64,000 nucleotides of DNA, taken from the NCBI GenBank assembly GCA_963514005.1, contig OY740817.1, positions 14,632,001 to 14,696,000 on the forward strand, in the 5' to 3' direction. The stretch is from Raja brachyura. Lineage: Eukaryota. Each line of letters opens with the position of its first letter. The stretch's first letter is position 1. Below the pieces are notes generated by a model. That model did not search any database and had not been told where the DNA came from. It saw only the letters and a program-made list of their open reading frames with translations. Shown here piece after piece: positions 4,116 to 61,867 of the stretch. A program made the translations under genes and the position numbers.

Positions 4116-4144
4116 CTTGCTGCTCGCCAAATCCCTGGATCCAT
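4116..4144 (-). CDS. Exon 1 (MDPGIWRAAR) of a neighbouring B7-like paralog that continues left of the window
   Basis: Identical to 61076-61104: ATG GAT CCA GGG ATT TGG CGA GCA GCA AG|gtagga, phase 2. Confidence 0.75.
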
Positions 4145-4259: not shown

Positions 4260-4400
4260 CAGTCAGTCAGTTTCACTCTCTGCTCTGGAGACCGAAACTG
4301 TCTTCCTGGAGTGAAATTGTCAATTGAAAGTATTGAGAATGTTTTCTGAACTTTCAGTTCAGAGGAGGATAAAAGGCGGGGGCGGCGCCGCAAATTTACC
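4260..4400 (-). promoter_or_regulatory. Putative promoter of the paralog with ISRE/IRF-like motifs and a GC box
   Basis: CAGTTTCACTCTC at 4268-4280, GGAGACCGAAACTG at 4287-4300, and GGCGGGGGCGG at about 4376, upstream of exon 1. Confidence 0.5.
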
Positions 4401-23965: not shown

Positions 23966-25962
23966 GCCAATAGATTCAAATGACTATGGCAGGGGTGTGG
24001 TTCCCCTGTGGCAGGGTTCGTCACCAATTGTGGGCAACCCTCCAAGAGGACCCATGGTTGACTTATCATTCCAAGGACCACCGGATACCATGATTGCGTA
24101 GGCCAGTCGGGTATAATGAGGATGCCCTTGGCAGCATCGAGCTGGATTTTCCGCAATACCCGACTGATGAGGCAGAATGGAGGAAAGGCATAGAAGAACC
24201 ATTTCCCCCAGTCTAGCGAGAATGCGTCCATCGCCATTGCCCCAGGATCTGGCTCCCATGATACGTATGTTGGTACCTGATGGTTCAACCGTGACGCAAA
24301 AAGGTCAATATCCGGTTTACCAAATTTGGCTGTAATTTTGGTGAATATTTGGGGGTTCAACATCCACTCGATGTTGTCATTGAACTTCCGTGACCTGGTG
24401 TCCGCCACTGTATTGAGCTCACCTGGCAAGTAGGTAGCTGAGATCCAAATATTCCGTTGAATACACCAGAGCCAAATTGTGTTTGCCAATTCATTGCATG
24501 AAATTGACCTGGTACCGCCCATATGATTCAGATAAGCCACCGCAGTGGTATTGTCTATTTGGAGACAGACATGAGTGTTAGTCATGTTTGAACAATAGGC
24601 TCTAAGTCCGTGGAATGCTCCTAGCATCTCCAAATAGTTTATCCCTTGTGCTAACAACAAAGTAGCTTCAAGTGAATCCCATCTACCTCCACAACTGTTA
24701 TTGTTGTCTGTAGCTCCCCAGCCATGGGAGCTTGCATCTGTTTGCAAGTATACCTTTGGACGAGGCACAATGATGGGTTTAAATGAGTTATGGATATTGC
24801 CAATCCACCATAGTAACTCAAGTTTTGCCTTAACCGGCAACTGCATGGGTCTATCATAATGTCCAGCATTTAATTTTAATGCTGTTATTTTTGACCTTTG
24901 TAAATTCTGATAGTGTAAAGGTCCATATTGAGCAGCTGGAAATACTGCTACAATTTTGCCAATTACCCTGGCAGTTAATCTGATAGACGGTATACTGGCG
25001 CAGACCAGGTTCTTGCATGCTTGAAACACATCACCAACTTTGTTAGTTGGGATGGTGGTGATCATGCGATTGGAGTCTATTGTGAACCCCAAGTAGTCCA
25101 TGATCTGTGCGGGGAGGAACTTTGATTTGTCTGGATGGATTATAAACCCCATTTGTTGAAAAATTTCCACTGTGGCTGAAACCGCCAACTCTGCGGATTC
25201 CAGAGTGTGCCCAATTATCAGAATGTCATCCAAATAGGCCATGACCGTATGATTTTGTCTCCGCAGTGTAGATAACACTGGCTTGAGTAGTTTGGTGAAC
25301 AGTCTGGGGGCTGTAGTAAGCCCATTGGGCAATGCTTTGTATTGCCAAAGCTGATCCATCCAGGTAAACTTCAAGAACTTTCTATGATGTTTCCGAATGG
25401 ATACTGAATAGTATGCATCTTTTAAATCAATGCATGCCATGAAGCAGCCCTCCGAAATCAAAGATTTGGCTGTTTCAAATGTGTCCATTTTGAAATGGGT
25501 GTATTTTACAAAGGTATTCAAGTGAGTTAAATCTATAATGACCCGGCATCCACCGTCTTTTTTAGTTTTAGTAAATATATTAGACACAAATTCAACTGGT
25601 TCATGTGTGGTTCGTTCTATCACACCTTTGTCTTGTAAACTCAAGATTTCAGCATAGCCTTCTGCCAATTCTTTTTTGGAAAGTGCAAATTTGCGATTCG
25701 GCATATGCTGGGGTGGAGGCAATTGGCCATGAATAAACTCAATTTCATAACCCTGAATACTTTGCAAGATAAACTCATCTGAAGTGATGGTTTCCCAAGC
25801 CTCCTTAAATCCCCGTAATCTGCCCCCAATTCGTGAGGTTAGACATGCAAGTGCATGGAACCCAGACCCCCTTACCTTCATGGTTATCGGCGGTCCCTGG
25901 GATTTTTGGTGGGACGTGGAGGCGCTGGGTTTCGTGGTTGGTGCGGAATCCGCATCTTCCAT
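23953..25962 (-). CDS. DIRS ORF2 pol: RT - RNase H - DNA adenine methyltransferase-like domain
   Basis: 669 aa, open. IDLKDAY, LPNG, YLDD, TDAS, INYLE, DNTTA, DLFAS, YAFPPF. Confidence 0.95.
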   Translation of the reverse strand: MEDADSAPTTKPSASTSHQKSQGPPITMKVRGSGFHALACLTSRIGGRLRGFKEAWETITSDEFILQSIQGYEIEFIHGQLPPPQHMPNRKFALSKKELAEGYAEILSLQDKGVIERTTHEPVEFVSNIFTKTKKDGGCRVIIDLTHLNTFVKYTHFKMDTFETAKSLISEGCFMACIDLKDAYYSVSIRKHHRKFLKFTWMDQLWQYKALPNGLTTAPRLFTKLLKPVLSTLRRQNHTVMAYLDDILIIGHTLESAELAVSATVEIFQQMGFIIHPDKSKFLPAQIMDYLGFTIDSNRMITTIPTNKVGDVFQACKNLVCASIPSIRLTARVIGKIVAVFPAAQYGPLHYQNLQRSKITALKLNAGHYDRPMQLPVKAKLELLWWIGNIHNSFKPIIVPRPKVYLQTDASSHGWGATDNNNSCGGRWDSLEATLLLAQGINYLEMLGAFHGLRAYCSNMTNTHVCLQIDNTTAVAYLNHMGGTRSISCNELANTIWLWCIQRNIWISATYLPGELNTVADTRSRKFNDNIEWMLNPQIFTKITAKFGKPDIDLFASRLNHQVPTYVSWEPDPGAMAMDAFSLDWGKWFFYAFPPFCLISRVLRKIQLDAAKGILIIPDWPTQSWYPVVLGMISQPWVLLEGCPQLVTNPATGEPHPCHSHLNLLACRI

Positions 25963-27650
25963 GCTGGCCGCTGAGGGCCTAGTCCTAAAAAAGGCCTGGG
26001 CTGATGAGGCTGTTGATATTGAGGAGGTGCCGGAACGTAGGTCCTTGTTGGCCTGTCGGTTTGACCTCGTGGCCTGAAGTAAGGTGTCTTCTTGGCCGAA
26101 GGTCTGGCCACAAAATGTGGTCTCATCAGACCTATGGTTTTCGCATGGTCATCGAGCTCTTTGACCTGCTTTGGGAGGTCTTCCCCGAACAGCTGTCTAG
26201 GTGGGGGGGTAGGAGGTGCTCTGCATAGTCCCGCAAATTTGGGATTCAAGGAAGGTTTGATAATGCTCTTCCGGAAAGCGTTGATCTCGTACTGCGTATT
26301 GCAGAGCAGAGCTAGAGCATCCTCCTGTTCGGTGCTTAGATCAACCCCATCTACCGACTTTGCAAAAGCGGTGATCCCAGACGTAAGCAGTTTTAAAATC
26401 CTCTGCAGTTTCACTTCCTGCGCTCTGATGCCCGGGCTGATATTACCCCAGATTGGCATGTTCACAATCGGCACGTGGAGTGAATTGCAGTTCCCTGGAG
26501 CCTTGTGTCTCTCCATGGCCTTCGCAAGGACCTCCTCCTGCAATTGATGGTTGGTAAGATAATCTATGGTTGCGGCCAGTTTGATGTTGAGGGGTTGTCC
26601 TGATGATACGGGTAACCCGAATTTGGCTGCCACATCCAGCAGATCTTCCTGAGGGACCTCAGGTGCTGCTGGGGCATGTACCAGGATATCCTCCTCATCT
26701 GGTCTTATGTTGTCCATAGATGGGGACGGGGATATATCCATGAGTCCCCTGGAGCTGTGTGTGTCCTGTTTCTGATTGAGTAGAACTTGCTCCAATATCC
26801 TCTCCATACGATCCAAGCGCCCTTCATCGGGCGGGTGTGGGAGGTAAGAGGCCTCGTGCCCGAAGGAACTCCTGAGGCTTCGATCATCAGTCCGTACCTC
26901 GTCGAGGTAATATCGGTACTGTGATGATGTGTCGCTACCAGCCGCCTCGGCGAAGCTGAGCGATTCCCGCGCGGACCTGCTCGAGCGCCTCCTCTTCGCT
27001 GAGCTGGACCCGGCTGCCTCAAAGGGCATGGGTGGGGAGAGGTCGGCACCTGACGCCGCAGCGTGGTGACCCGACGTCCGCACGGGCTTGCCGACTGTCC
27101 TAAATCTGGACCCAGACGGCGTACGGTCCCGACCTGCCCCCAGCGGGGGAAGCGGTGACCTAGGCGAGGCTCCACCCTTGTGACTCCTCCTGGTCCCTCT
27201 GGGTGGTGAGTCGACACTGGCCCTTCTTGGTCTGCCAGTGGACTCGGGCCTGCCTGATTCACCAGACCACTTCCTAGTGGCTCCTGGTGAGACCTCAACC
27301 CGCGAAGGGCTAGGTAGTGGAATTGTATCCCTGCCTCCTTCAAGAGGGCTCAGGGAGAAGGGCCGTGCATCAGCACGCGAATCCCTTTTACTTGTCTCTG
27401 CAAACGACCCAGTGGGTGAGAGAGAGATGGAGTCAGGATGCACCTGCTCCGGCGCTGTACCGACTGATTGTTCTGCAGGTACCCCGCTAGGGCATAGCTG
27501 CGTCGGTAAACCGGATCCTGTGAATACAGGGCTCCCCGGCTTGCGCGCCTTCTTCCCGGCCCGTCCTCCTGCCGTGGAGGGGGGCTCCGGGTTGGGTTGC
27601 CGACAACTCCTTGCAGAAGTTTTACGGCCTTTACTTTTCCTACTGTCCAT
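25884..27650 (-). CDS. DIRS ORF1 gag-like protein
   Basis: Open frame 25884-27698 with first ATG at 27650 (MDSRKSK). Disordered N-terminus, helical core (PGNCNSLHVPIVNMPIW...LFGEDL), basic Pro-rich tail. Confidence 0.85.
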   Translation of the reverse strand: MDSRKSKGRKTSARSCRQPNPEPPSTAGGRAGKKARKPGSPVFTGSGLPTQLCPSGVPAEQSVGTAPEQVHPDSISLSPTGSFAETSKRDSRADARPFSLSPLEGGRDTIPLPSPSRVEVSPGATRKWSGESGRPESTGRPRRASVDSPPRGTRRSHKGGASPRSPLPPLGAGRDRTPSGSRFRTVGKPVRTSGHHAAASGADLSPPMPFEAAGSSSAKRRRSSRSARESLSFAEAAGSDTSSQYRYYLDEVRTDDRSLRSSFGHEASYLPHPPDEGRLDRMERILEQVLLNQKQDTHSSRGLMDISPSPSMDNIRPDEEDILVHAPAAPEVPQEDLLDVAAKFGLPVSSGQPLNIKLAATIDYLTNHQLQEEVLAKAMERHKAPGNCNSLHVPIVNMPIWGNISPGIRAQEVKLQRILKLLTSGITAFAKSVDGVDLSTEQEDALALLCNTQYEINAFRKSIIKPSLNPKFAGLCRAPPTPPPRQLFGEDLPKQVKELDDHAKTIGLMRPHFVARPSAKKTPYFRPRGQTDRPTRTYVPAPPQYQQPHQPRPFLGLGPQRPAWKMRIPHQPRNPAPPRPTKNPRDRR

Positions 27651-27883
27651 GTCTCTGTGGAAGAAAACACAATTATTCACACAGAACAACCAACTCAAGG
27701 TTGTTAGTACTTACCTGAGTGGCCCTTATGAAGGGCTGGTGATGAGCCGCGCTCCTCTCCAGCCGTCGACTGCAATGCGAGCGACGATATGCCGCGCATG
27801 CGTGCTGGCGGGTTCTTCACGAAGTCACTCACGTGACTCCGAAATGAAATAGAAGTATTTTAATTTGACATCCTTCCCCACAA

Positions 27884-41347: not shown

Positions 41348-41400
41348 CTACAGATTAACAGCGGAGTCTACAGATGTCCTCGACGTTCTGTGCGTGGCCT
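41348..41400 (-). other. Candidate terminal (cytoplasmic or 3' UTR) exon of the B7-like gene
   Basis: Unique sequence with acceptor TTGTTTGTCCACTTTCAG at 41401. Direct splicing from the TM exon creates a TG|A stop; the phase-1 frame reads ATHRTSRTSVDSAVNL*. Confidence 0.3.
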
Positions 41401-44046: not shown

Positions 44047-44188
44047 CATTTACTAGGGACGTGGAAATGTCGCAGTAAGAGGTAGAGCAGCAGCAGCAAC
44101 AGTGTGATAGCAGCGATGGAGGCCGGCACAATCCACCGGTGATCTGTGGCTCTCACCATTTCCTTCGGATTCTCTTGCGGGAAAGACA
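44047..44188 (-). CDS. B7-like gene exon 6: stalk + transmembrane + short cytoplasmic segment
   Basis: tttctgtgtcag| ... |gtgagt, phase 1 to 2. Reads SFPQENPKEMVRATDHRWIVPASIAAITLLLLLLYLLLRHFHVPSK. Confidence 0.85.
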
Positions 44189-44837
44189 CTGACACAGAAA
44201 CATCCGCTCAATATTGATGCAAATATTAAAAATCAGAAACCAAAAAAACTTTTGTGCAATTTTCCACAGAATCCTTGGAGGTATGAGGAATACAATGTAG
44301 TTTAGAGGTTTAGAGATACAGTGCGTAAACAGGCCCATGGGCCCACCGAGTCTGCACCGACCAGCGATCCCCACACATTAGCACTATCCCACACTACGGA
44401 CAATTTACATTTATACCAAGCCAATTAACCTGTACGTCTTTGGAGTGTGGGAGGAAACTGGAAATCTCTGAAAACACCCACGTGCGGTCAGGGGGCGAAC
44501 GTACAAACGCTGTACAGACAGCACCCGTAGTCAGGATTGAACCTGGATCTCTGTAAGCGCTGTATGCCAGCAACTCTACCACTGCGCCACTGTAGCACCC
44601 CGCTGTTTCCCAACTACGCTGTATCACTAAACTAAACTTCCGAAGTATGCTTACATTTTACAACTTCCACTTCACCACCATTGTGTAGGAAGGAACTGCA
44701 GATGCTGGTTTACACAGAACACAGACACAAAATGCTGGAGTAACTCAGTGGGACAGGCAGCATCTCTGGAGAGAAGGAATGGTTGAGACCTTTCTCCAGA
44801 CACCACAAGCTTAAAAACAAAGATCATGAATCTTTAC

Positions 44838-45176
44838 CTGCTACTTGTAGTGTGACTGTAACTCGTAGAACCACGCTGTAGCCCCCAGTGGGGTGTTTCC
44901 ACTGAATGAAGCATGTGTACATGGCTGCATCGCTCACTCGGAGGTCGGTGATAAGAAGGGAGAAGTTGCCGCGTTTGAACTCTGTGGTGAACAGCCTTGC
45001 CCTGGTGCCCAGGCCCGATGTGTGGTCCTCTCTGCCCATATGGAAGGAATGGATTAACTGCTTGCCCACCTGCCAGTAAACGCGAATATCATTGTTGGCT
45101 TGTTTCCACACGTTGGTGTCCAGACAGGGCAGGAGGGCACTTTCACCCACAAAACCCGTGAGGTTAGACAGCGACA
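44838..45176 (-). CDS. B7-like gene exon 5: second IgV domain (recent duplicate)
   Basis: 339 nt, phase 1-1, intact AG/GT. LPC...RVYWQ...GNFSLLITDLRVSDAAMYTC...VTLQVA. Confidence 0.75.
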
Positions 45177-46707
45177 CTGGGGATAAAATAAGGACAAAAT
45201 AAGCCAGGGTCTCGTCCACTCATTCATTCTCCCCACAGATGCTGCATGTCCCGCTGAGTTACTCCAGCATTTTATGACTATCTTCGGCTGAAACCAGCAT
45301 CTGTAGTTCCTTCCTACACATTTTTTTTAGTTTAGAGATACAGCGCGGAAACAGGCCCTTTGGCCCACTGAGTTCACGCCAACTAGTGATCCCCGCACAC
45401 TAACACACTAGGGACAATTTACAATCATACCAAGCCATTTAGCCTACAAACCTGTACGTCTTTGGAGTGTGGGAGGAAACTGGGGATCCCGGAGAAAACC
45501 AACACAGGTCACACAGAGAGAACGTGCAAACTCCGTACAGACAGCACCCGTAGTCAGGATCGTCCCCGGGTCTCTGGCGCTGTGAGGCAGCGACTCTACC
45601 GCTGCGCTACCGTGCCACCCCGGTGTTTCCCAACTGCGCTGAATGCCATTTTAAATTCTCAATGGCCCTTTCACTACTTCCAATTGTTCTACTACCCTCG
45701 ATTGCCCAAAATAGGTGCGAGGGGGAAAGTTTAAAGGAGAAGTGAGAGGGCAGTTTTTTTACAGAGTGTGGTGGGTGCCTGGAATGCAGTGCCAGGGGTG
45801 GTGGTGGAGGCTGATACGATAGTGGTGTTTAAGAGGCTTTTAGTTAGGCACACGGATAGGCAGGGAACGGAGGGATATGGATCATGAGAAGGCAAGGGAG
45901 ATCAGTTTTACTTTGCTTCATGCTTGGCACAGACATTGTGGGCCGAAGGGCCTGTTCTGTTCTGAATCCTCATAAGTTCATAAGTGATAGGAGCAGAATT
46001 AGGCCATTCGGCCCATCAAGTCTACTCCACCACTCAATCGTGGCTGATCTATCTCTCCCTCCTAAACCCATTCTCCTGCCTTCTCCCCATAACCCCCAAC
46101 ATCTTCTACAACTTTGCCACCAGCTACAGCCGGTGATGGCATAGTTATGGGGCGTGAAATAGGAGCTCAACAAATCAAAGAATGAAGACAGAACGGAATC
46201 GTCATCTCAGTGAAAGACAATACAAGTTTCTTTTATTCTATGGATCCCAGAAATGACAAACAGAAAATACTTATCAGGTCAGGCAGCATCTATGGGAAGA
46301 GAAGTATTCAACGTTGTAGGTTGAAGAGCCAAGAGACATTTAGTTTAGTTTATTGTCACGTGTACCGAGGTACATTGGAAAGCTGTTTTTGTTGCGTGAT
46401 ATCCAGCCAGCGGAAAGACTATACATGATTACAATCGAAGAAAGCTCTCAATCCGAAACGTCACTTATCCCTATTCTCAGAGATGCTGCCTGACCCGCTG
46501 AGTTACTCCAGCAATTTGTGTCTATCTTCAGTGTAAACCAGCATCTGCAGTTCCTTCCCACAACATGATTACAATGTACAGATACAGGATAAAGGAAATA
46601 ACCTTTAGTGCAAGATAAAGTCCAGTAAAGTCAACTTGAAATGTTACGGTTGTTGTCTATATTGAGGGAGTTTTTCCAAGGAGAAATTATTTTTTTCCCC
46701 CACTTAC

Positions 46708-47004
46708 TTGCAGTAAAGGTTTCAGTTTGTTTCTCCTTCAGCCTGGTGTTGTAAATGCTACAGGTGATGCAGTGTACTCCAGCGGACACCCACAGGACCG
46801 AGGTTACGTTGCACAGTCTCTCCGGGGAGCAGTCGGTGTGGGTTGTGGCCGTGTTGTTCGGATCCAGGTTCAGGGACCCGCAGGTCCAGCCCACCGCTGG
46901 GGCTGGATACCCTCCCCAGGAGGAGCAGGTCAGCCTCAGCACCCCTCCTGCACCTTGCTGCCCCTCCGACAGATCCGTACTCAGGGTCGGCTTGGCAAAG
47001 TGGG
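46708..47004 (-). CDS. B7-like gene exon 4: IgC domain
   Basis: ttccattccag| ... |gtaagt, 297 nt, phase 1-1. AHFAKP...LTCSSWGGYPAPAVGW...NVTSVL...ITCSIYN. Confidence 0.9.
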
Positions 47005-47309
47005 CTGGAATGGAACAGCAGCGTTAACATTAACAACAGCGCTGACTGGCTGGCACCCAACAAACGCTTTTCACTGTTCCTCGATAGACTTTTATTTTAA
47101 ATTTCAAAATATACTTTCTTCGAGAAATAAATATATCCAACACATGATCCTTACATCCAACATTCTCGGATGCTATACATACATTCAATACTGTTTACGC
47201 AAATCACACAATGTTACCCCACACCCTTGCCACTCATGTGGCCCACTTGCATGGAATCCCTTCCCTTATTTAGAGGGGCGTCTCCACCACACCACAGACC
47301 AGACACCGG

Positions 47310-49180
47310 GCATTCATGTCTGATGATACAGTGGTCTACAAGAAGTCCAGATACGACCTTGGTAAGGCAATCAAAAAGGCCAAAAGGCAGTTCTGCTCCA
47401 AGCTGGAGGATGAGAGCAGATGCTCGGCAGCTATGGCGGGGCCTGAATGCAATCACCTCCCACAAGGCGAAATCAGGAGGCAGCTCGAATGTCGGCGAAA
47501 CAACACTCCCTGATGAGCTCAATGTATTTTACGCACGTTTTGATAGGGAGAACACCGATGTGCCTTCCCGAGCCCCGATTCGCTGTGATGGTATTTCAGT
47601 CTCAGTCACAGAGGCCAACGTCAGGAAATCGTTCAGAGGGGTGAACCCTCGAAAAGCGCCTGGACCTGATGGTATACCAGGTCGTGTTCTAAAAACCTGT
47701 GCGGACCAACTGGCTTGAGTTTATACGGACATTTTCAACCTCTCGCTTCTGAGGTCTGAGGTTCCCACCTGCTTCAAAAGGGCATCAATTATACCAGTGC
47801 CCAAGAAGAACAAGGTGACGTGCCTCAATGACTATCGACCTGTGGCACTAACGCCTGTGGTGATGAAGTGCTTCGAGAGGTTGATCATGGCGCAAATCAA
47901 CTCCTACCTCGACAAAAACCTGGACCCACTGCAGTTCGCTTACCGCCACAACAGACCAACGGTGGACGCGATCTCGCTGGCCCTCCACTCCGTTCTGGAC
48001 CACTTGGACAACAAAAACTCATATGTCAGGCTGTTATTCATCGATTACAGCTCGGCATTTAATACTATCATCCCCTCCAAGCTGGTTACCAAACTCGCAG
48101 AACTGGGTCTCTGCGCATCCCTCTGCAATTGGATCCTCGACTTCCTCATTGACAGACCACAGTCTGTTCGTATTGGTGGAAATGTGTCAGACTCGATAAC
48201 AATCAGCACGGGGGCACCTCAAGGCTGCGTGCTCAGCCCCCTGCTGTACTCACTCTATACTTATGACTGCGTTGCCGGTCATAGTGCAAACTCCATCATC
48301 AAGTTCGCGTGACGACACCACTGTTGCGGGATGTATCAGTGATGGGGATGAGTCAGAGTACAGAAGAGAGATCGAGCAACTGTCCATATGATGCCAGCAC
48401 AATAACCTGGCCCTCAACACCAGCAAAACCAAGGAACTGATTGTGGACTTTGGAAGGAGGAGGATGGGGACCCACAGTCCCGTTTATATCAACGGGTCAA
48501 TGGATGAAAGGGTCAAGAGCGTCAAATTCCTGGGCGTGCACATCTCTGAAGATCTTTCCTGGTCCAAGAACACCGATGCAATTATCAAGAAAGCTTATCA
48601 GCGCCTCTACTTCCTGAGAAGATTACGGAGAGTCGGTTTGTCAAGGAGGACTCTCTCTAACTTCTACAGGTACACAGTAGAGAGCTTGCTGACCGGTTGT
48701 ATCGTGGCTTGGTTTGGCAACTTGAGTGCCCTGGAGAGGAAAAGACTACAAAAAGCAGTAAGCACTGCCCAGTCCATCATCGGCTCTGACCTTCCTTCCA
48801 TTGAGGGGATTTATCGCGGTTGCCGCCTCAAAAAGGCTGGCAGCATCATCAAGGACCCACACCATCCTGGCCACACACTCATCTCCCTGCTACCTTCAGG
48901 TAGAAGGTACAGGAGCCTGAAGACTGCAACGACCAGGTTCAGGAATAGCTACTTCCCCACAGCCACCAGGCTATTAAACCAGGCACGGACAAAACTCTGA
49001 ACATTAATAATCCATTGTCTGTTATTTGCACTTGATCAGTTTATTTATTCATGTGTGTATTTACGTATATAATGGTATATGGACACACTGATCTGTTTTG
49101 TAGTCAATGCCTACTATGTTCTGTTGTGCTGAATTCATTGTCCTATCAGGGACACATGACAATAAACTACGTGAACTTGA
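47310..49180 (+). mobile_element. Rex1/Babar LINE, 5'-truncated, in the IgV1-IgC intron
   Basis: [23 protein letters not shown] and KFA/DD across frameshifts; AATAAA and (GAACTT)n tail. Confidence 0.95.
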
Positions 49181-49293
49181 ACTCAGCGGGACATTCAGCA
49201 TCTCTGGAGAGAAGGAATGGGTGAGACCTTTCCCCGGACACCACCGCTGTTAATACAAAGAAAAGCTTAAAACCAAAGATCATGAATCTTTAC

Positions 49294-49632
49294 CTGCTAC
49301 TTGTAGTGTGACTGGAACTTGTAGAACCACGCTGTAGCCCCCAGTGGGGTGTTTCAACTGAATGAGGCATGTGTACGTGGCTGCGTCGCTCACTCGGAGG
49401 TCGGTGAGAAGAAGGGAGAAGTTGCCGTGTTTGAACTCTGCGGTGAACAGCCTTGCCCTGGTGCCCAGGCCCGAAGTGTGGTCCTCTCTGCCCATATGGA
49501 AGGAATGGATTAACCGCTTGTCCACCTGCCAGTAAACGCGAATATCATTGTTGGCTTGTTTCCCCACGTTGGTGTCCAGACAGGGCAGGAGGGCACTTTC
49601 ACCCACAAAACCCGTGAGGTTAGACGGCGACA
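49294..49632 (-). CDS. B7-like gene exon 3: first IgV domain
   Basis: ttttatccccag| ... |gtaaag, 339 nt, phase 1-1. V-set C, W and DxxxYxC motifs; B7-type RVYWQ and GNFSL. Confidence 0.92.
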
Positions 49633-50734
49633 CTGGGGATAAAATAAGTACAAAATAAGCCAGGGTCTCGTCCACTCATTCATTCTCCCCACAGATGCTG
49701 CCTGTCCCGCTGAGTTACTCCAGCATTTTATGACTATCTTCGGCTGAAACCAGCATCTGGATCTGAAACCAGTTCCTTCCTACACATTTTTTTTAGTTTA
49801 GAGATACAGCGAGGAAACAGGCCCTTTGACCCACCCAGTCCACGTCGACCAGTGATCCCCGCACACTAACACTATCCTACATACGCTAGGGACAATCTAC
49901 AATTGTTACCGAAGCCAATTAACCTGCTAACATGTACGTCTTTGGAGTGTGGGAGGAAACCGGAGCACCCGGAGAAAACCCACATGGGTCATGAGGGGAT
50001 CATACAAACTCCATACAAACAGCACCCATAGTCAGGCTTGAACACAGGTCTCTGGCACTGGGAGGCAGCAACTCTACTGTGGCGCCACCCTCTTTTTCTG
50101 AAGAAAAAGTATAACATACAATATTTCTAAGGATCGCAACTATTGTGTTATGGCAGCACTGCAGCTCAAAGTCATCCCTCTTCATCTCCCAGGGTTATTG
50201 CTGGTCCGTCTCCCTAGAGTCGAGAACCTTCTGGCCACTGGCAATCCCTGTGGACTGGGATCTGAAACTATAACTTTATCACTCACATGGAGGAAGGCTG
50301 AAATAACAGAGGCTTGGATGGAGTTCTCTCCGGACGTACTTCCCACAGGCTGGGGTTGCCCCACCACTGGTGTATGTGTGGGACAGGCTGTCGACAGACA
50401 GATGAAGCATAACTGTCTTTTCTCAGACACAACAGAGGTGATCCGTGCATCTTTTAGAGTTACAGAGGGTGGTGCAGCGGTAGAGTTGCTGCCTCACAGC
50501 GCCAGAGACCCGGGTTTGGACCGGACTATGGGTGTTGCCTGTACAGAGTTTGCACGTTCTCCCCGTGACCACGTGGATTTTCTCTGGGTGCTCCGGTCTC
50601 CTCCCACACTCCAAAGACATTCGGGTTTGTATTTGGTTGATTATTAGGACTGGATGTTACAATCCCTAAGATTTCACTACAATTGACATTCTTGGGGATG
50701 ACCACCAGGTGAATTTTGCTAACAATCAGACACA

Positions 50735-52232
50735 TCTTCAATTGTGTAGCTCAACGTCACTGGGTGTTTCGGCCTTTTATCACAAGACACCCTCAGTCAA
50801 GGCAGGCCCACCACAGGTTGATCAGACCATCAGATGCGTGTCTTATTGCTAGCCTCTAGATGGTCACGTGGCAGCCCAGACAGCATCTTTCCTCTTCAGC
50901 CACAGCCAGTGACTGCTCAGTTCGGCGGCATTGGCAAGTTCTTTTATTGCCCTCCTTTGTGCCTGCCCTTTGACTCCCTCAGGAGCGTTACGATGGAACT
51001 GGCTACAAAGCCTCTGCACCCCACCTCCACTGGACACACCCTTACCCTCCAACCTCTCTCCTCTGCCTCTGCTGCAAGGTTTGAATATCGAAGCTTTTCC
51101 TTTCATAAGCCTCGTCCACAGCCTCCTCCCAGGGGACCGTCAGCTCAATGATGAAAACACGCCGACAGGAGTTGGACCAGAGAAAGAAGTCTGGTCGCAT
51201 GTTGGTAGCTGCGATTTCAACTGGGAACGAAAGCCTCTGGCCTAGGTCAACACGCATTTCCCAGTTCCTGGATGCGTTCAGTGGCATGAGTTGAGAGGCG
51301 AGGGGTTAGTCCTCCGTTTCTCTCCTTCCCGGATGAAGGATGGTATTTGCGGGAATGTTATCTGGACATTGATAGGCATGGCGTTGGTGGTAACTCTCTT
51401 GCACTCGAGTTCAGCTGCCAAACACCTCAGCACCTGGTTGTGTCGCCAGGTGCATCTGCCTTGTGTTAGGCTGGTCTTACAACCGACCAGGATGTGCTTG
51501 AGGTTTGCTGGAACTGCAAACCGGGGGCAGGCTGGATCCTCTCCCAGCCAAAGATTTAGGTTTGTGGGAGAGGAAAGACGTCATATGTGGCTCTGATAAT
51601 GAAGCTCAACTTATTTAACTCCTTGGTCCACAGCTCTCTCCATGTGATCTTCCTCCTTTCAACGCCATCCCACCTCATCCAGCGGCCTTGTTTGGCTTGG
51701 GATACGGCTTTGGCACACCTGGCCTCTTCTTCCTGGTGGCGCACCTCCTCCACCACCAGGTGCCGACGTTCAGCTGGAGTAGCCTTTTGCCAGGTAGGTT
51801 TGATTGCTCCCAGGCCAAAGCCCCCTCTGCCTTGTTGGACATGGCCCACTATGTCCCGGTGTTGGAGGGCGGATTTTGCGTCCAGTACCACTGCTGCTGG
51901 AGTCCATTTCCTACCTGTTGCTAGGGTTGGAGCGACACCTCTTATTATTGGGTCCCGGGATTCTGTTAGTGTCATGTCCAGCCTCACTTTGGCACATTTG
52001 TACTCCTCCACCAGGCTTGAGACTGGCAGTGAGAGAGCTCCATTTCCATAGAACCCTATGCTGCTGAGGCATCTCGGTAACCCAAGCCACTTCCTCACTT
52101 GTGAGTTCACCAGTCTCTCCAGCTTGTTGGCATGGGATAAAGTGACCTCGTAGATGGTAATTGGCCACATGAGTCGGGGCCGTAGACCGAATTGCAGGCA
52201 CCAAAGCTTCAGCTTCCCTGGGAGAATTGACG
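50735..52232 (-). mobile_element. R2/Hero-type non-LTR element 3' half (RT C-terminus, CCHC, restriction-like endonuclease)
   Basis: VRKWLGLPRCLSSIGFYG...TGRKW; RPDFFLW...IIELTVPWEE (PD-(D/E)xK). Confidence 0.9.
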
Positions 52233-52676
52233 TCTATAAAGTATAAATTGTCCCTAGTATGTAGGTTGGTGCTAGTATGCGGGGTGATCGCTGGTCTGTG
52301 TGGACTCGGTGGGCCAAAACATACACTGTATCTCTAAACCAAGCATGAAATCAAGCCCCTTGGCCCACCGAGCCCACACCGTCCATCGATCGCCTGTTCA
52401 CATTAGTTCTGTGTTATCCCACTTTCTCATCCACTCCGTACACACTCGGGGTAATTTTACAGAAGGCTAATTAACCTACAAACCCGCACATCTTTGGGAT
52501 GTGGGAGGAAACCGGAGCACCTGGAGAAAATCCACATGGTTACAGAGAGAACGTGCAAACTCCACACAGGCAACACCGGAGGTCAGGTTCCAACCCGGGT
52601 CTCTGGTGCTGTGAGGCAGTGGCTTTAGTTCATGAAACTAATGGACCTATTCAGAGAAGTGGAAATGAATTCTTAC

Positions 52677-52738
52677 CTGTTCTGCAACACAAAAGCAGCA
52701 AAGCACATTGGAGCAGCGCAGCCACCCGTCTGGTCACC
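52677..52738 (-). CDS. B7-like gene exon 2: signal peptide
   Basis: gtgttacag| G GTG ACC...AGA ACA G |gtaaga, phase 2 to 1. VTRRVAALLQCALLLLCCRT joins exon 1 and IgV1 in frame. Confidence 0.88.
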
Positions 52739-52789
52739 CTGTAACACAGTGAATGCATTGATATTTCAAAGGTGAATCCGTTTACAAGT

Positions 52790-53215
52790 TACTGACAATA
52801 GCCACACGCAAATTGGAGGAATAGCATCTCATATTTCGCTTCGGCAGCTTACAACCAGTGGTATAAATATTGATTTCTCTAATTTCAAGTAACCCTTGCA
52901 TCCCCTCTCTCTCTCTCCATCCCTCCCCTGCCCTAGTTATCCTGCTAGTTTTACTGTTTGTATCCCTTCATTATCACCCCCTCCACAGCCAACAATGGAC
53001 CATTGTGGGCTCTTTGGCTGACGGTCCCAGCTCAGATTTCTTCTGTACCTTAACATACCGCTAGTTTCCCTCTCCCCTGACTCTCAGTCTGAAGAAGGGT
53101 CCCCACCTGAAACGTCACCCATTCCTTCTCTCCAGAGATGCTGCCTGACCCGCTGAGTTTTTGTGTCTGTCTTCGGTTTAAACCAGCATTTGTAGTTCTG
53201 TCCAGCACATCACAA
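52790..53215 (+). mobile_element. Penelope-like element 3' end with hammerhead motif
   Basis: GIY-YIG C-terminus (HLIFRFGSLQP...NIDFSNFK*), pyrimidine tract, then CTGAAGA-AGGGTCCCCACCT-GAAACGTC at 53089-53116. Confidence 0.85.
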
Positions 53216-53485
53216 CTTCCTGATCTTTAGTCAGACTTTAATGGACTTTATCTTTTACTAAACATTATTCCCTTTATCCTGTATCTGCATCTGACGGCTT
53301 GGTTGTAATCACATATAGACTTCCTGCTGATGGAATAACAAAAACCGTTTGCGTTATATCTTGGTACACGTGACAGTAATAAACTAAATCAAAGTTATTT
53401 TTTAGTTTAGTTTAGTGATTCAGCATATAAACATTTCCTTCAGCCCACCGAGTCCATGTGACCAGTGATCCCCGCACACTAACAC

Positions 53486-53522
<37 letters not shown>

Positions 53523-54716
53523 GATAATTTCCGCGCTGTATCTCTAAACTAAACACCGTACAGACAGCACCCGTAATCAGGATCGAACCTGGGTCTCTGG
53601 TGCTGTGAGGCAGCAACTCAAATTGAATACAGAAAATGCTGCAGAGACACATCAGGTGAGGCTGGGAGTGAAGCGGTTAATGATTCAGGTTGACGGCTTT
53701 TCAACAAAACCGAAAGATGACTTCATCTCCTGGAAACTTTCCCAGCAGTTTCAGCACAGCTCGAACCACAGGAGCCACACACGGCCTTCCCTCGGCCCAG
53801 CCACTGCCCGACTCCATCACACTCACTCACTCTCCTGGATCCACTAACACTTACTTTACTTCAGTTTAGCACAGCACAGAATCGTGCCCTTCGGCCCATC
53901 AAGTTTGCGCCAACCAGCGATCCCCGCACATTAATTGGCTTGGTATTAATGTAAATTGTCCCTAGTGTGCGTGTAGGATAGTGTTAGTGTGCAGGGATTG
54001 CTGGTCACTGTGGACTCAGTGGGCCGAAGGGCCTGTTTCCGTGCTGTATCTCCAAACTAAAAATTAATGATCAACACACACTAGGGACAATTTGCCTTTT
54101 TTTATACCAAGCCAATGAACTGAAAAACCAGTACGTCTTTGGAGTGTGGGAGGAAAGCGAAGATCTCGGAAAAAACCCATGCAGGTCATGGGGAGAACGT
54201 AAAACTATCTCTCTTCTGCTCTCTTCTATGTTCGGTCACAGATAGAGCATGCAAACTCCACACAGACAGCGCCAGAGATCCCAATCGAATCCTGCCCACA
54301 ACAGCGCCACCTGCAGAATCACTGCACCACCCAGTGGTCGGAGGACTGTTCACCGGTGAGCTCAGCTTTGAGACATTCAGCAGAAATAAAATGTGCCCAT
54401 TGCGAAACAAATCCCTGATCCTCTAATAATAAACTTGTTGACACAAATCTACCAAGAAAGTTATACTTATTTTCACGAAAGAGTCCAGGGGTAATACCCT
54501 GAATGAAAAATGGCGCTAGGTGGAAAATAAAAGTCATTTATTGCAGGGGGATTTTCTGATGGTCACTAGGAATGAGAAAAGAAAATTAGTTCCCTAACCC
54601 CTAACTACTTATTTTCCTTCCTCCGGCTCTTCCAATTCACTTCTGAATTGTGAGCAGTACAGCATACTTTTTGCAGAAGTGCTCAGGGCAGTGCGTGTCA
54701 GCATTAGAACATAGAG

Positions 54717-55746
54717 TAGCAATGTTACAAAATTTTGAGATTTAGAAAAATCAAGTCTGCAATTTATCCCATCAGATAAAGCATAAAAAGAAGTTTAATT
54801 TGACACCTAATTTACTTTCATATCTTCAGTATTAAGAAAGTTATGGCCATTTTCATACTCGGAAATTAGCATCTTGCCCCCCATTGCCTTCAATTAACTC
54901 AAAAGCTGTGATCTGGAAAAGTTAAAAGTCCATAACTTTCTTAAAAATTAAGAGAACTCAATGAAATTTTCAGTTATTATAGATTGAAGCATTCTGAAAC
55001 AAATATGAAACAATCTTACTTGGATGACCTGAAATTAAAGCATATAATTAGTTAGTTATCTAATTGTAGCTAATTACAAAATTCAATGAGTAGATCTAAA
55101 CATCTATCCATTTCTTAAAAAAAGATAAAAACAATTGAAATTGCCTAAGTATCCAAATAACATTCACACAATAATCCACAATATAACATAATTTTTAAAT
55201 CTCATTTTCATGAATTTTTGGGCCAAATGGAAGGAATTTAGTGTTTCATGCTTGTAAATTAATGGCCATTTAAATCAACTAGCGAGTGGGTTTTAGTGGA
55301 ATGCGGTGGATTGGAACGTTGCGGTTAGCGGTGAAGTCGGGTGGAAAAATAGTGTTTGTTCATACATTTTTTGGGAGCCCATTTCGCAACATAAAAATAT
55401 TATTAAAGCCTCCCGAAAAACCAACGTTTAATATAAAAAAAAACTATTTACCTTTTCTTCTCCCCTACGCTAAATCCTTCCGGTTGTCGGTGCTCACGGC
55501 TTTTGAAGGTGATTTTTAAATGACTCTAGTTAATAAATAATTTAGAGTAATTTAAAAATACCTTCATTGATGAAATGTCGGAGCGATTGTTCTTCCGCAA
55601 CCAAATCACCCGACATTCATCGATTTGTCCTGCCTGTTGAAAAACGGCACTTTAAGCCCGCCCCCCTCTGAAAGGCGCCAAAGTCGCGCACACGGGGAGC
55701 GGCAGAAGTGCAGCGCTGCGCAAGGTAAGTTTTGCAACATACCTAC
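54717..55746 (-). mobile_element. Non-autonomous TIR DNA transposon (possibly Academ-like)
   Basis: Imperfect TIR TAGCAATGTTACAAAA / TTTTGCAACATACCTA; homologous to 19005-20918. Confidence 0.65.
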
Positions 55747-56099
55747 TGTTTCCACGCTGTATCTCTCAACTAAAATGAAATCAGATAATACACTACATAA
55801 ATACAATCACGCCAAACTCAAGTACAACAGGTAGAGCAAAGGGTAAGGTACAGAGTGCAGAATATAGTTCTCGGCATTGTAGCGCATCAGTTCCAGAGAC
55901 AAAGTCTAGTGTCTGCAATGGAGCAGAGGTGAATCGAACAGTACCATAGATTATGGATGGACCGTTCAAAGCCTGATATCAGAGGGGAAGAAGCTGTTCC
56001 TGAGTCTGATGGGTGCGCTTTGAAGCTTCTGTACCTTGTGCCAGACGGGAGATGTTGGATTAACCTGGGCGGGACACGTCTTTAATTATGTTGGCTGCT

Positions 56100-58695
56100 C
56101 TCCACAGGGCAGCGTGCGCTGGTAATGAGGTTCCGACGGTGCAGGAAATAACTGACTGGGAGGGCTCCCCTCACCGCCAGCCAAGCCAGGTCTTGGTTCT
56201 TGTTGGTGAGCTCTGGCGATGAAGCATTTTGCCAGACACGCTGGGTAGTCTGCTCTGGAAACCATGCCACCAGATCCATCGAGTCCTTTCCCTGCAGTGC
56301 CTGCAGGACATTCCGTGCTGACCACTGCCCGATGGACATGTGGTCAAAGGTGTTGGTCCGGAAGAACCATTCCACAAACGACAGATGGGGCAGCAATGTG
56401 TGGCATCTGCGCCAGGCCCATCCTTCGCAACACCGGGGACAGGTAGAACCTCAGCAGGTAGTGACACTTGGTGCCCACGTGCCTTGGCTCTACACTCCGC
56501 CTGATGCAGCCACACACGAAGGTGGTCATCAGGATGAGAGCGACGTTGGGCACGCTTTTACCCCCGTTGTCTGCTGACTTGTACATTGTGGCCCGTCGCA
56601 CCCGGTCTATCCTCGACCCCCAGATGAACTGGAAGACGGCCCGGGTGATCCCTGTGGCGTAGGAGGTAGGGACAGGCCACACTTGCACCAAGTACAGCAG
56701 CCCCGAGAACACCTCACACCTGATGACCAAATTTTTCCCGGTTTTAAGGTTGCTTTCACAGCTCCAGTTTCATCCCCCCCTTGGCTATCCGCTCCAGCCA
56801 ATTCTTGTTACATGCCTCAGCCCCCCCGAACCAGATCCCCAGCACCTTCAAGAACTCAGGCTTGATGGTGAAAGGGACGGAAGATCTGTCGGGCCAGTTG
56901 CCAAAGAGCATGGCCTCGCTCTTTCTGCGGTTCACCCTGGGCCCGTGGCCGACTCAAACTGGTCGCAGATGCTGATCAATCTGCGGACCAACCCTGGATC
57001 CGAGCAGAAGACAACGACATCGTCCATGTACAGGGATGTTTTGACTTGAATGCCCCCACTGCCTGGCAATGTCTCTCCTCTTATGCTTGCGTCCTTCCTG
57101 ATGGACTCAGCAAAATGTTCAATACAACAGGCGAACAAGACAGGGGAGAGAGGGCAACCCTGCCTGACTCCAGACCTTACAGGGAAACTGTCTGATTCCC
57201 ACCCATTGATTTGCACTGCACTACGGATATTGGTGTAGGGCAGTTTGATCCAATTCCTGATTCATGTGCAATATCCTGTCGAAGGCCTTCTCCTGGTCCA
57301 AGCTGAATAGGCAGGCATCCACCCGTCTGTCCTGCACGTAGGCAATGGATCCAGGGTCGCCAGGCTGTCTGAGATATTCCTGCCAGGTACAGCACAGGTT
57401 TGGTCCGGATGGATCACCTGTCCCAGAGCAGACTTGACCCAGTTGGCGATGGCCTTAGACAGGATCTTGTAATCGACATTCAACAATGTGATGGGTCTCC
57501 AATTCCTTATATCATTCATCTCCCCCTTCTGCTTGTAGATTAGGGTGATGCTGCCCTTCCTCATGCAGTCTGACATGCTGCCGACTAGAATTCAGTAAGC
57601 TCCTCTAAAGTCAGTGGTTGGTCCAGACTCTCCCGCTTGCTGTCCTCCAAGACCTCCGTGATAGAGGACAGGAAGCTCTGGGAGGCGGTGCTGTCTGTGG
57701 CCTTTCTGTCTTACAAATCTGCGTAAAAGGATTTGCAGATCCTCAGCATGTCCGTCTGCGAGGATGTTACCGAGCCGTCCTCCTCCCTAAGGCTGTTCAT
57801 CACAGAGCTCCCCCTGTGAACCTTATGGAAGAAGAAGCGTGAGCACGTCTCATCCTGCTCCACATGGCGGACCCTAGATCGGAAGATGATCTTGGAGGAT
57901 TCAGAGGTTAAGAGCCGAGCTTGCCGGTCCTACACCTCTCTAAGTTTCACCCTCACATCCACCCCTCTCGACTGCAGAAGGAGCAGTTGCTGTAAATCTA
58001 TCTGGAGTAGACACAATTCCATCTGACTCTGTCTTGCTCTCTGAACCCCTTTAAATATGAAGAACCTCTTAATGTTCTCCTTGGTTGCTTCCCACCAGAG
58101 TGTCGGGGAGTCAAAGAGGGGCCTCACCGCCTGCAGGGTCGCTGAAGACGTTGTGTCACTTTGCATCTTTTACCGTCTCCATCAGGAACTATGATTATGG
58201 AACTCACTGCCAGATCACGTGAAATGTATCCCTACATATGTCACATTCAAAAGAAAACACAAAATTGTGGCTAATTCAACAACAATCTTGGTCTCATATT
58301 TAGTTTTTACACTGTGCTCTCTCTGTATGTCTTTTTCTCTTTTCCATTTTTTATCTCATTTTCATTTTCCTATTTTTTATAATTTTAATCTGTATTATCA
58401 TTTTTAACCAAAAGCCCTACTAGGGACAAGTGTTGCGAATTAGCTTTGGCTAAAACACTATGATGCATACATCAGATGACTGTTTCAAGTGTATCTATGT
58501 TTTTGTATCTGTCCCTATTTAAATAAACCTTAATCAATCAACTTGGACGTGCTGTCCAGTCTGTTGTCGGCACTGCCAGATCGTCCAGCCGCATCAATGA
58601 TGCAGTTTAAGTCACCGGCCTGGCCGGGATGTGGCCAGCAGCGGTGAGGCATACACATTAATCAGCCAGAGTGGAGAGCCCCGGTACATTACATC
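56100..58695 (-). mobile_element. Tx1/L1-clade LINE ORF2 relic in intron 1
   Basis: NWRPITLLNVDYKI, RQGCPLSP, YMDD, GGKSVPN and a C-terminal CP motif. Confidence 0.92.
58191..58539 (+). mobile_element. Short L2/Crack-group LINE 3' end, specific to copy B
   Basis: WNSLPDHVK motif, AATAAA and (ATCA)n tail, TSD AACT. The empty site is at 1387-1390. Confidence 0.8.
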
Positions 58696-61075
58696 TCCTG
58701 GTGGTGCAATGTATCACGGATGCGAATTGTGGACACAGACCAGCGCACAAACCAACCTCCCTTCCATTGACACCATTTATACCTCACACTGCCTCAGCAA
58801 AACCAGCAGCATAATCAAGGACGAGTCGCACCCTGGTCACTCCCTATTCTCCCCTCTCCCATTAGGCCAAAAGGTTTGGTGTGTGAAAATGCACACCTCC
58901 AGATTCAGAGACAGTTTCTTCCCAGCTGTTATCAGGCAACTGAATCATCCTACCAAAACCTGAGAGCAGTGCTGAACTACTCTCTACTTCATTGGTGATT
59001 CTGGGACTATCCTTGATCAGACTTTACTGGCTTTACCTTGCACTAAACGGTAATCATTAATCATGTATCCTCCACTGCAAATGGACCAATTGTAATCATG
59101 TTGAAGAGAGAACTGCAGATGTTGGAAAAATCGAAGGTAGACAAAAATGCTGGAGAAACTCAGCGGGTGAGGCAACGTCTATGGAGCAAAGGAATATGTG
59201 ACGTTTCAGGTCGAGAGCCTTCTACAGATTGTAATCATGTATTGTCTTTGTGACTGGTTGGAACGGAACAAAAGCTTTTCCGTGTACGTCGATACACATG
59301 ATAAAAAACTAAACTAAACAAAAAAATGCGTGGGAAAGATTTCCTGGTGCCCATCCCTGGGGAAGTCCCATCTTCCCTCCGATTCAACAAGTGATTTTTC
59401 ACAACCAATTTTTCTTTCCTGTTCCTGACGCAATTTTCTATCAGTCCTGCGACAGCTCTTTTTATTCCCTCACAGAGTTTGGTGTTTCCACTCCATTTTC
59501 CAGCCCCTGTTTTCACCCACACCCTCCCCTCAGCCCATCTGCATCTTTACTTTTGCCTAGTGTGTTCACGTTCTTCCCCTCGCACACATTGCTCCATTTG
59601 CCCAGCATCTGCCTGCTCACTTTAGACTTCAGTGATACAGCGCAGAAACAGGCCCTTCGGCCCACTGAGTACCTGCCAAGCAGCGATCTAGCACTATCCT
59701 ACACACACGAGGGACAATTCTACCCATGCAAATTAACCTACAAACCTGTACGTCTTTGGAGTACGGGAGGAAACCGGAGCACCTGGAGAAAACCCATGCG
59801 GTCACTGGGAGAATGTACAGGCCGTACAGACAGCACATGTAGTCAGGATCAAACACGGGTCTCTGGCGCTGTGAGGCAGCAGATCTGATGCCGAGCCACC
59901 TTAAATGTGTCACTTGGTTCCACCTATGACATACCAGCCCGTCTCACCCTCATATCTTCTGTCTCACCCTCATATCTTTACACTACCTTACGCTGATTAA
60001 AGTAAAAATGTCATTGTTCCGTTTCGGGACATATGACATTAAAACTCTCTTGAATCCCTCCATCTAAACTCTCAGTCCTGTTTCCGATGTTGGGGGAGTC
60101 CAGAACCAGGGGCCACAGTTTAAGAATAAGGGATAAGCCTTTTAGAAAGGAGAGGAGGAAACACTTTTTCTCACAGAGAGTTGTGAGTGTGTGGAATTCT
60201 CTGCCTCAGAGGGCGGTGGAGGCCGGTTCTCAAGAAAGAGCTAGATAGGGCACTTAATGATAGTGGAGTCAGGGGATATGGGGAGAAGGAAGGAACAGGG
60301 TACTGATTGGGGATGATCAGCCATGATCACATTGAATGGCGGTGCTGGCTCAAAGGGCCGAATAGCCTACTCCTGCACCTGTTGTCTTTTGTCTATTGCA
60401 AGATCCTGATCCGAAACATCGATTGTCTGTTTGCCTCCACAGATGCTGTCTGTCCCACAAGCCCTCATCACTCAACGTGTACAAACACTAGCCGCCCCAT
60501 CCTTTAAACTTTGCCCCCTCACCTGAACGCTACGGCCTCTGCTTCACCCTGATGATGCCTCATACACTAGTAAGAATACATTTCAAACATGATGGACTTT
60601 TTCAGTGAAAGACCGACTCAGTAAAGACAGATACATAAGCAAGTAAACAAATTGTACCCACCCCATCATTTCACACCAGCCACTCCCTCTTCTCCCATCA
60701 GGTAATATAGAAGTGTGAAAATGCACACCACCAGAGATACAGCGCGGAAACAGGCCCTTCAGCCCACTGAGTTCGCACCGCACATTAACACTATCCTACA
60801 GAAGTCAATCCCGGGGAAAACCCGCGCAGGTCACAGGGAGAATAGAAACATAGAAAATAGGCGCAGCACGAGGCCATTTGGCCCTTCGAGCCAGCACCGC
60901 CATTCAATGTGATCATGGCTGATCATCCACAATCAATAGCCCGTGCCTGCCTGCCTTCTCCTCATATCCCTTGATTCCCAATGTGCAAACTCCGTGCAGA
61001 CAGCAGCTGAAGTCGGGATGGAATGCGGGTCTCTGGCGCTGCTGTCGACCTGCGCTTCTTCCCGGGTTATCCTAC

Positions 61076-61104
61076 CTTGCTGCTCGCCAAATCCCTGGAT
61101 CCAT
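61076..61104 (-). CDS. B7-like (CD80/CD86/ICOSL-like) gene exon 1, MDPGIWRAAR
   Basis: ATG...GCA AG|gtagga, phase 2, compatible with exon 2. A split leader with a phase-2 first exon is also seen in CD86 and ICOSLG. Confidence 0.8.
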
Positions 61105-61219
61105 CCGTGCGAGACAGGTGCCCGACTCCGCTGCTGAAAGGCGCTTGTTAAAAAACCCCAACAAAGTAGGCTTCTAAAGCAGAATAATAAATGTTTTAAT
61201 GTTGATATTCTGTTACTAG

Positions 61220-61360
61220 CAGTCAGTCAGTTTCACTCTCTGCTCTGGAGACCGAAACTGTCTTCCTGGAGTGAAATTGTCAATTGAAAGTATTGAGAAT
61301 GTTTTCTGAACTTTCAGTTCAGAGGAGGATAAAAGGCGGGGGCGGCGCCGCAAATTTACC
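61220..61360 (-). promoter_or_regulatory. Putative interferon-responsive promoter of the B7-like gene
   Basis: ISRE-like CAGTTTCACTCTC at 61228-61240, CAGTTTCGGTCTCC on the minus strand at 61247-61260, further GAAA half sites, and a GC box at about 61336. Confidence 0.5.
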
Positions 61361-61867
61361 GCCGAGCTTTCCGGACTTTTTTCTGGTGATCTGACTTTTC
61401 ATGTGGCCGTTCGCTGGGAATTTGAAACGGGTGGTAAAGTCCCCGGTGATGTGTTCCCTAATGTATGTAGGGTAGTGTTAATGTGCGGGGAATCGCTGGT
61501 CGGTGCGGGCTCGATGGGCCGAAGGGCCCGTTTCCGCGCTGTCTCTCTAAACGTCGAGGTCTGGAGCAATGGATATTGTGTAGTCTAATCAGGGTAGGAC
61601 ACATACCTCAAATGGAAGGGTCCAGGGGAGGACTGAGGAACACGGGTACCTTGGTGTCCCGGAAGGTGGCAGGACATGTAGATCAGGTGGGGAAGAAAGC
61701 AGATGGAATACTAGTTTCATTTAGACATGGCATACTGTAGAACTGGCTCCTGCCCCTCCACTCTTCAGCTTTCTTTCCCCCCACCCCTGCAATCAGTCTG
61801 AAGATGGGTCCCAACCCCAAATGTCACCCATCCATGTTTGGCACGTTCATATGTTCTAGGTGTAGAA

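Follow-up and report, generated by a model that had tools for sequence, protein, structure and literature searches.

HHLA2 (B7-H7) is a protein of 414 amino acid residues, in which the domains IgV1-IgC-IgV2 are followed by a transmembrane (TM) segment and whose receptor TMIGD2 binds IgV1 (PMC10173190). A domain duplication is also known from CD276 (B7-H3), where it was found across many mammals (PMC3172298). As described for the 2Ig and 4Ig forms of B7-H3, the length and domain number of a B7 ectodomain affect receptor engagement and shedding (PMC3172298). Ig-exon duplication in B7 genes is already known as a type of event, and the gene of the skate Raja brachyura described here, gene A, is a convergent variant of it.

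Similar to HHLA2, gene A has the layout V-C-V-TM and a comparable length (402 versus 414 residues) (PMC10173190). Different from HHLA2, however, gene A has a V2 that copies V1 with 96% identity, and the orthologues of gene A are V-C. The two V domains of HHLA2 diverged anciently. Judged from the sequences, the likeness to HHLA2 is one of layout only, and convergent. Gene A resembles 4Ig CD276 in the tandem exon duplication, in the near identity of the copies and, as predicted for gene A, in a short isoform that stays in frame (PMC3172298), but its layout is V-C-V rather than V-C-V-C, and the two are separate genes. We found no published description of a V-C-V layout from skates in the literature searched, subscription journals lying outside the search, and the supplementary file of PMC3964593 gave 0 matches for five B7 names. 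The V-C-V layout is already implicit in RefSeq models that were made automatically for Leucoraja and named "CD276-like."

Exon Structure and Predicted Product of Gene A

The window, which is the whole stretch of 64,000 nucleotides analyzed, corresponds to G000:C55:14632001-14696000, and gene A is read on its minus strand. The exons of gene A are:

61076..61104, minus strand: exon 1, with ATG and leader part 1 (29 nt, phase 2); the N-terminus matches Amblyraja model P0019 and shark orthologues
52677..52738, minus strand: exon 2, leader part 2 (62 nt); hydrophobic window of 1.74 at residue 15
49294..49632, minus strand: V1 exon, IgV (339 nt, phase 1-1); Pfam V-set, E 6.5e-11
46708..47004, minus strand: C exon, B7-type IgC (297 nt, phase 1-1); Pfam C2-set_3, E 2e-7, and CD80-like C2-set_2, E 3e-6
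44838..45176, minus strand: V2 exon, a duplicate of V1 including acceptor and donor; Pfam V-set, E 1.4e-11
44047..44188, minus strand: stalk/TM exon (142 nt, phase-2 end); hydrophobic peak of 2.58 at residue 375

These six exons, whose boundaries were checked by script, formed a stop-free frame of 1208 nt and 402 residues in the order leader-V-C-V-TM, with AG at all five internal acceptors and GT at all six donors, which bears out the six-exon gene of about 402 residues proposed in the initial annotation. Gene A has one domain per phase-1 exon, a leader and a single TM segment, as B7-family genes do. The product contains six N-glycan sequons and is, we infer, a type I membrane protein. Between V1 and V2 there were 14 differences in 339 nt, 12 nonsynonymous and two synonymous, a likeness not due to chance; the initial annotation had counted the same number. 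The homology extended about 170 nt upstream and 110–210 nt downstream of the exons, and the high identity between 45360-44740 and 49830-49180 that had been claimed for the introns was also found.

In gene A as well as in its paralogue B, V2 was stop-free, had its AG and GT intact and retained the Cys, the Trp and the D-x-A-x-Y-x-C motif. Moreover, the splice signals of V2 were identical to those of V1, and, as copies of them, make inclusion of V2 in the mRNA likely. A direct C-TM splice is also in frame; it reproduces the junction of the Leucoraja and Amblyraja models, and the V2-skipped product is V-C-TM with 289 residues. A search for short V2-like proteins possibly spanning a splice junction found none (four candidates, of which 0 scored). 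The structure predictions were of low confidence (pLDDT 47 for P0001 and 54 for V1), and no conclusion was drawn from them.

Downstream of the TM exon lies the exon of a former cytoplasmic tail:

41348..41400, minus strand: ancestral tail exon, an intact 17-codon frame like the tails of Leucoraja and Rhinoraja, out of frame here

Joined to this next exon (at 41400), the phase-2 end of the TM exon reads TG/A, a stop, in both paralogues; thus, the 402 residues are probably the entire protein. A and B had the same sequence for the 17-residue tail of the Leucoraja and Rhinoraja models, and it was intact, with its frame lost. The ancestral tail appears to have been lost by frameshift in both paralogues, and that of gene A would have been shortened to about nine residues. 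Compared at the protein level with Rhinoraja, the end of the TM exon would have lost 2 nt in A and gained 1 nt in B. The TM-exon ends of A (window 44047-44063) and B (near G000:C55:14604360) were of locally different sequence. In addition, a weak GT donor at 44054 in gene A would restore the frame of the old tail.

The Tandem Paralogue and Its Genomic Surroundings

Only the first exon of paralogue B lies within the window:

4116..4144, minus strand: exon 1 of paralogue B, whose other exons (L2, V1', C', V2' and TM') are outside the window on the left, at G000:C55:14604.4-14625.0 kb

Similar to gene A, paralogue B was L-L-V-C-V-TM, its six exons were in the same order and its V and C exons were open. 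Thus, comparison with the adjacent gene, which the initial annotation had suggested, gave the same V-C-V content, and the V duplication predates the A/B gene pair. The TM exon of B (G000:C55:14604503) has GG instead of AG at its acceptor; an in-frame AG 15 nt downstream matches the shorter junction of the Leucoraja models P0001 and P0013. At least four matches were found in the genome with the V exon at the DNA level and at least two close matches with the C exon at the protein level, all of them at the A/B locus. The divergence between A and B introns ranged from 0.6 to 3.4% in all eight blocks measured, and several repeat insertions differed; both speak against an error of assembly. The identity of the exon-1 regions (60266-61867 in A and 3299-4907 in B) was 99.4% (9 of 1602 positions differed), that elsewhere 97–99%; conversion between A and B in the promoter region is possible on this pattern.

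That the V duplication or that of the whole gene is an assembly artefact is scarcely credible. The locus is indeed repeat-rich, with 67% of 374 kb self-matching, and so high an identity of the exon-1 regions would also suit an artefact. However, the four V copies were all distinct (7–19 nt), had their own flanks and were accompanied by different repeat insertions, and the upstream flank of V2 was its own and common to A and B.

The neighbors of the locus were a septin-3-like (SEPT3-like) gene on the left and, on the right, a weak TDP2-like exon (E 0.02; 150 of 1343 candidate ORFs scanned). They are unlike PWP2 and TRAPPC10, which are the neighbors of human ICOSLG at 21q22. Utp12 matches, which we take to mark PWP2, were on C12, not on C55, and a search for TRAPPC10 gave no match anywhere in the genome and so no guide to synteny.

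Several other elements were observed around the two genes. A BCL7-like first-exon sequence (L010:2267-2362, plus strand; Pfam BCL_N, E 2e-12) is found about 58 kb left of the window, adjoining a 7.9-kb tandem repeat; a motif search of the 374 kb found no subsequent exon of it. Within the window, a tyrosine-recombinase retroelement, presumably DIRS-like, with RT and phage-integrase ORFs in long open frames occupies 22976-27710 (minus strand), and a second, inverted copy of it with 69% identity is at 13511-16647 (plus strand). About 22 kb right of the window, an LTR-retroelement pol frame (protease, RT, RNase H, integrase) is open over 1380 residues (L014:2620-6759, plus strand).

Placement in the B7 Family

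Pfam identified V-set in both V exons and C2-set_3/C2-set_2 in the C exon, which is the CD80/butyrophilin-type C domain after an IgV. A butyrophilin B30.2 domain was absent: the frame stops at the junction of the TM exon and the next exon, and non-Ig Pfam domains were found in 0 of 11 representatives. The top PDB matches of a profile built from ten orthologues were CD276, ICOSL, CD80, PD-L1 and CD86, and its scores per V-C were 113 bits for CD276, 107 for ICOSL, 79 for CD80, 69 for PD-L1 and 63 for CD86. The named tetrapod matches of the profile search were mostly ICOSL.

The B7 tree was built from 46 rows chosen from 116, with no row named HHLA2. The lineage of gene A was recovered with 100/100 and fell within a 36-row group (98/96) that also contained CD80, the tetrapod ICOSL sequences and a second ICOSL-like clade, from sharks; the base of this group was unresolved. 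The CD276 clade (100/99) excluded the gene A lineage. Gene A as CD276 was rejected, as a V exon on C41 scored 108 bits to CD276 versus 38 for V of gene A, and CD276 formed a separate clade. This better match on C41 also renders the RefSeq name "CD276-like" misleading. Gene A is probably not HHLA2 either: it is V-C-V, but its orthologues are V-C and V2 is a near copy of V1.

Similar to ICOSL (ICOSLG, B7-H2) and the elasmobranch RefSeq group named "CD276-like/ICOS ligand-like," gene A has a V-C core, a YWQ C strand and a long FG loop and belongs to the same tree group; different from ICOSL, it has an extra membrane-proximal V domain and a tail of about nine residues. The motif IRVYWQ was invariant in all 13 aligned rows. 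Human ICOSL aligned along the long FG loop, where CD276 had a seven-residue gap. CD80 and CD86 were in the same tree group and the C-strand motif R-x-Y-W-Q was also found in turtle CD80, but their profile scores (79 and 63 bits) were lower than that of ICOSL. Gene A belongs to an ICOSL-like elasmobranch lineage of the B7 family, for which the tree resolved no one-to-one ICOSL orthologue. The Pfam matches, the V-C relatives, the profile and the tree support the initial annotation of a V-C-V gene of the B7 family that arose by V-exon duplication from a V-C ancestor. Of the "CD86/ICOSL-like" ancestry proposed there, the profile favors the ICOSL-like part over the CD86-like part (107 versus 63 bits), and the phylogeny it had called for groups the gene with ICOSL and CD80, apart from CD276.

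Domain Layouts of the Relatives

The protein search with V1 returned 11 clusters, all from elasmobranchs. The skates were closest, and the V identity was 87% to the Leucoraja and Amblyraja models. Nine of the 11 cluster representatives were V-C and two had two V domains. Overall, the orthologues were V-C in sequences from 11 other elasmobranch species, V-C-V in models of Leucoraja and V-V-C in models of Heterodontus. In Leucoraja erinacea, the RefSeq models were V-C-V at two loci (P0001/P0012 and P0014) and V-C at a third; these V-C-V models are automatic annotations on contigs of 76–518 kb. Three of the four members of one Leucoraja cluster were V-C-V, and their V1 and V2 differed at 0–2 of 114 residues. 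The models P0002, P0016 and P0018 of Heterodontus francisci had identical V domains in the order V-V-C, which is either another V duplication or an assembly artefact. The Amblyraja model (P0019) was V-C, and a Logan-derived full-length relative (P0021, from a 1344-nt contig) was V-C-TM. All four V domains of A and B lacked two residues (residues 3–5) that were found in Leucoraja, Amblyraja, Rhinoraja and Pristis, a deletion by which a new sequon for N-glycosylation arises close to the N-terminus.

Breakpoints of the Duplicated V Cassette

The V exons are flanked by repeats that we take to be SINEs. The elements of the rearrangement are:

44626..45360, minus strand: duplicated V cassette around V2, about 0.7 kb
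49180..49830, minus strand: matching cassette around V1, its 3' part broken by an unrelated repeat at 49180
45330..45615, minus strand: SINE upstream of V2
49796..50089, minus strand: SINE upstream of V1
44308..44600, minus strand: SINE between V2 and the TM exon, at the right end of the rearrangement
45616..45641, minus strand: 26-nt tag before the SINE upstream of V2
44596..44621, minus strand: the 26-nt tag again, on the downstream side of V2

Rfam gave no match in window positions 40000-64000. The identity of the SINEs upstream of V1 and V2 was about 80% at first and climbed to 97% in their last 60 nt, which places the left breakpoint in the SINE tail. The 26-nt tag had four matches in the genome, three of which were at the A/B locus, and its copy downstream of V2 was fused to V-intron sequence at a 4-nt microhomology. 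A third close copy of tag and SINE was found 430 kb distant, with no B7 exon within 30 kb of it. At G000:C55:14247821-14248211, a 390-nt stretch (the SINE and a 90-nt flank) was 81% identical to window 45320-45703, and about 90–95% in its first half; it may be the source or a sister of this piece of the C-V2 intron. That the two SINEs flanking V2 are one duplicated copy was rejected, as they had 1 of 18 derived sites in common; for the same reason, the tag is no proof of one simple crossover.

The tag and the breakpoint fit either an unequal crossover guided by SINEs, after which a second C exon was deleted, or one template switch. The initial annotation had raised the loss of the second C from a V-C-V-C intermediate. 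This route, with V and C doubled jointly by a crossover between SINEs, is a serious possibility that falls short of being probable: the C-V2 intron's tag is found again immediately after V2, at the microhomology, and CD276 offers a precedent (PMC3172298), but the V2-TM intron of neither gene contained a C-exon remnant, the close C matches in the genome were two, a one-step template switch leaves the same pattern, and the third close copy of tag and SINE is 430 kb distant.

Age of the Duplication and Exchange Between V Copies

The V domains grouped by species and not by position, with the four rows of A and B at 97/95 and the eight Leucoraja rows at 90/92. Among the four V copies, six of 505 columns were informative, of which three grouped the copies by position, two by gene and one crosswise. 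Three of the six conflicted with a tree without exchange, the simulated P ranging from 0.003 under even rates to 0.10 under strong rate variation; thus, exchange between the V copies is moderately supported. Moreover, A_V1 differed from B_V2 at 7 nt and from B_V1 at 12 nt. Together, the grouping by species and the conflicting sites mean that the 96% identity of V1 and V2 may reflect gene conversion and not recent origin. The V1-V2 divergence was 2–6%, only about twice that of the A and B introns, which speaks against an old origin, as does the V-C layout of the Amblyraja model. Private changes were most numerous in A_V2 (12 of 505 columns, including G23W and L92W), ranged from 2 to 8 in the others and were lowest in B_V2 (2); eight of the nine private exon changes of A_V2 were nonsynonymous. 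Positive selection on V was rejected: dN/dS was 1.9 with p = 0.30, and 12 nonsynonymous against 2 synonymous changes are compatible with neutrality.

The initial annotation called the duplication recent and independent, neither of which is established, given that it predates the paralogues, that Leucoraja is alike and that the V copies show signs of exchange. On the sequences at hand, the chances of a single origin in common with Leucoraja appear evenly balanced, and it is improbable that the Leucoraja V-C-V models are artefacts. A tentative alternative is that separate recent duplications of V took place here, in Leucoraja and in Heterodontus (there as V-V-C), or that the Heterodontus models are artefacts, in either case with little conversion needed. 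The clustering of the V copies by species, the V-C layout of the Amblyraja model and the different order and identical V copies in Heterodontus are consistent with this, and the divergence levels suit a V duplication followed by a gene duplication, as they also suit a simple duplication after the split from Leucoraja. On the other hand, one event is more parsimonious for an identical unusual order in two skates, and the conflicting sites in the four copies indicate exchange. In addition, the two V domains of human CD276 are only three residues apart in the aligned stretch despite a duplication found across many mammals (PMC3172298), so that similarity of V1 and V2 is no proof of recency.

It is also conceivable, though rather unlikely, that V2 is a passenger, mostly skipped or tolerated under neutral drift, with the ancestral V-C-TM form as the functional protein. 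The in-frame C-TM splice with its Leucoraja/Amblyraja junction, the V-C-TM layout of P0021 and the mostly nonsynonymous, neutrality-compatible private changes of A_V2 point this way. However, the open frames, intact splice sites and conserved Ig residues of both V2 exons, the sharing of splice signals with V1 and the presence of only two private changes in B_V2 argue against it.

Proposed Origin, Candidate Receptors and Implications

We consider it somewhat probable that the open leader-V-C-V-TM frame arose by copying of the V exon within a V-C, ICOSL-like gene, and that its product is likely a membrane ligand with V1 as the binding domain and V2 as a spacer. Under this preferred reading, the C-TM intron of a B7 gene that was ICOSL-like and originally V-C would have received a copy of the V exon, as a cassette of about 0.7 kb, when SINEs in the introns took part in recombination assisted by repeats or in template switching. 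A tandem duplication of 36–52 kb would next have produced genes A and B, and gene conversion would since have mixed the four V copies. The V duplication may be common to Leucoraja and so older than the 96% identity suggests. As its signals copy those of V1, V2 would be spliced in by default, adding a membrane-proximal Ig domain, and its skipping would restore the ancestral V-C-TM form of 289 residues in frame. With the extra V domain, the protein would be longer, similar to the situation in human B7-H3 and HHLA2. The outer V1 with its IRVYWQ strand is predicted to bind a CD28/CTLA4/ICOS-like receptor at its proline-rich loop; V2 would mainly provide spacing, with a possible influence on shedding like that described for 4Ig B7-H3 (PMC3172298).

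Two CD28/CTLA4/ICOS-like V exons with a proline-rich CDR3, 33 kb apart, were observed at G000:C7:54.46-54.49 Mb (L061 and L063). In the binding mode of CD80 and CTLA4, the V domain contacts the proline-rich loop of the receptor. The complex prediction of V1 with the CTLA4-like V on C7, one of the two candidate receptors, scored 0.29 against a mark of 0.34, too low for a verdict. Chondrichthyan genomes were described to have two or three CD28/CTLA4-like receptors each, with no clear one-to-one orthology, and the receptor exons on C7 agree with this description (PMC11599192).

A bolder reading, which we regard as speculative and unlikely, is that the V-C-V layout of HHLA2 type was re-invented in skates from an ICOSL-like gene, with V1 and V2 kept alike by conversion, both tails separately frameshifted away, and an expressed V2 that alters reach or valency in the T-cell synapse. 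If true, the gene, together with the V-V-C models of Heterodontus, would be a hot spot showing the first step of B7 domain gain. The V-C-V layout of HHLA2 is too old to reveal how it was made. Gene A, whose copies are 96% alike, whose breakpoints can be seen and whose relatives are V-C, offers a natural model of V-C-V origin and makes it testable which skate CD28/CTLA4-like receptor the ligand serves.
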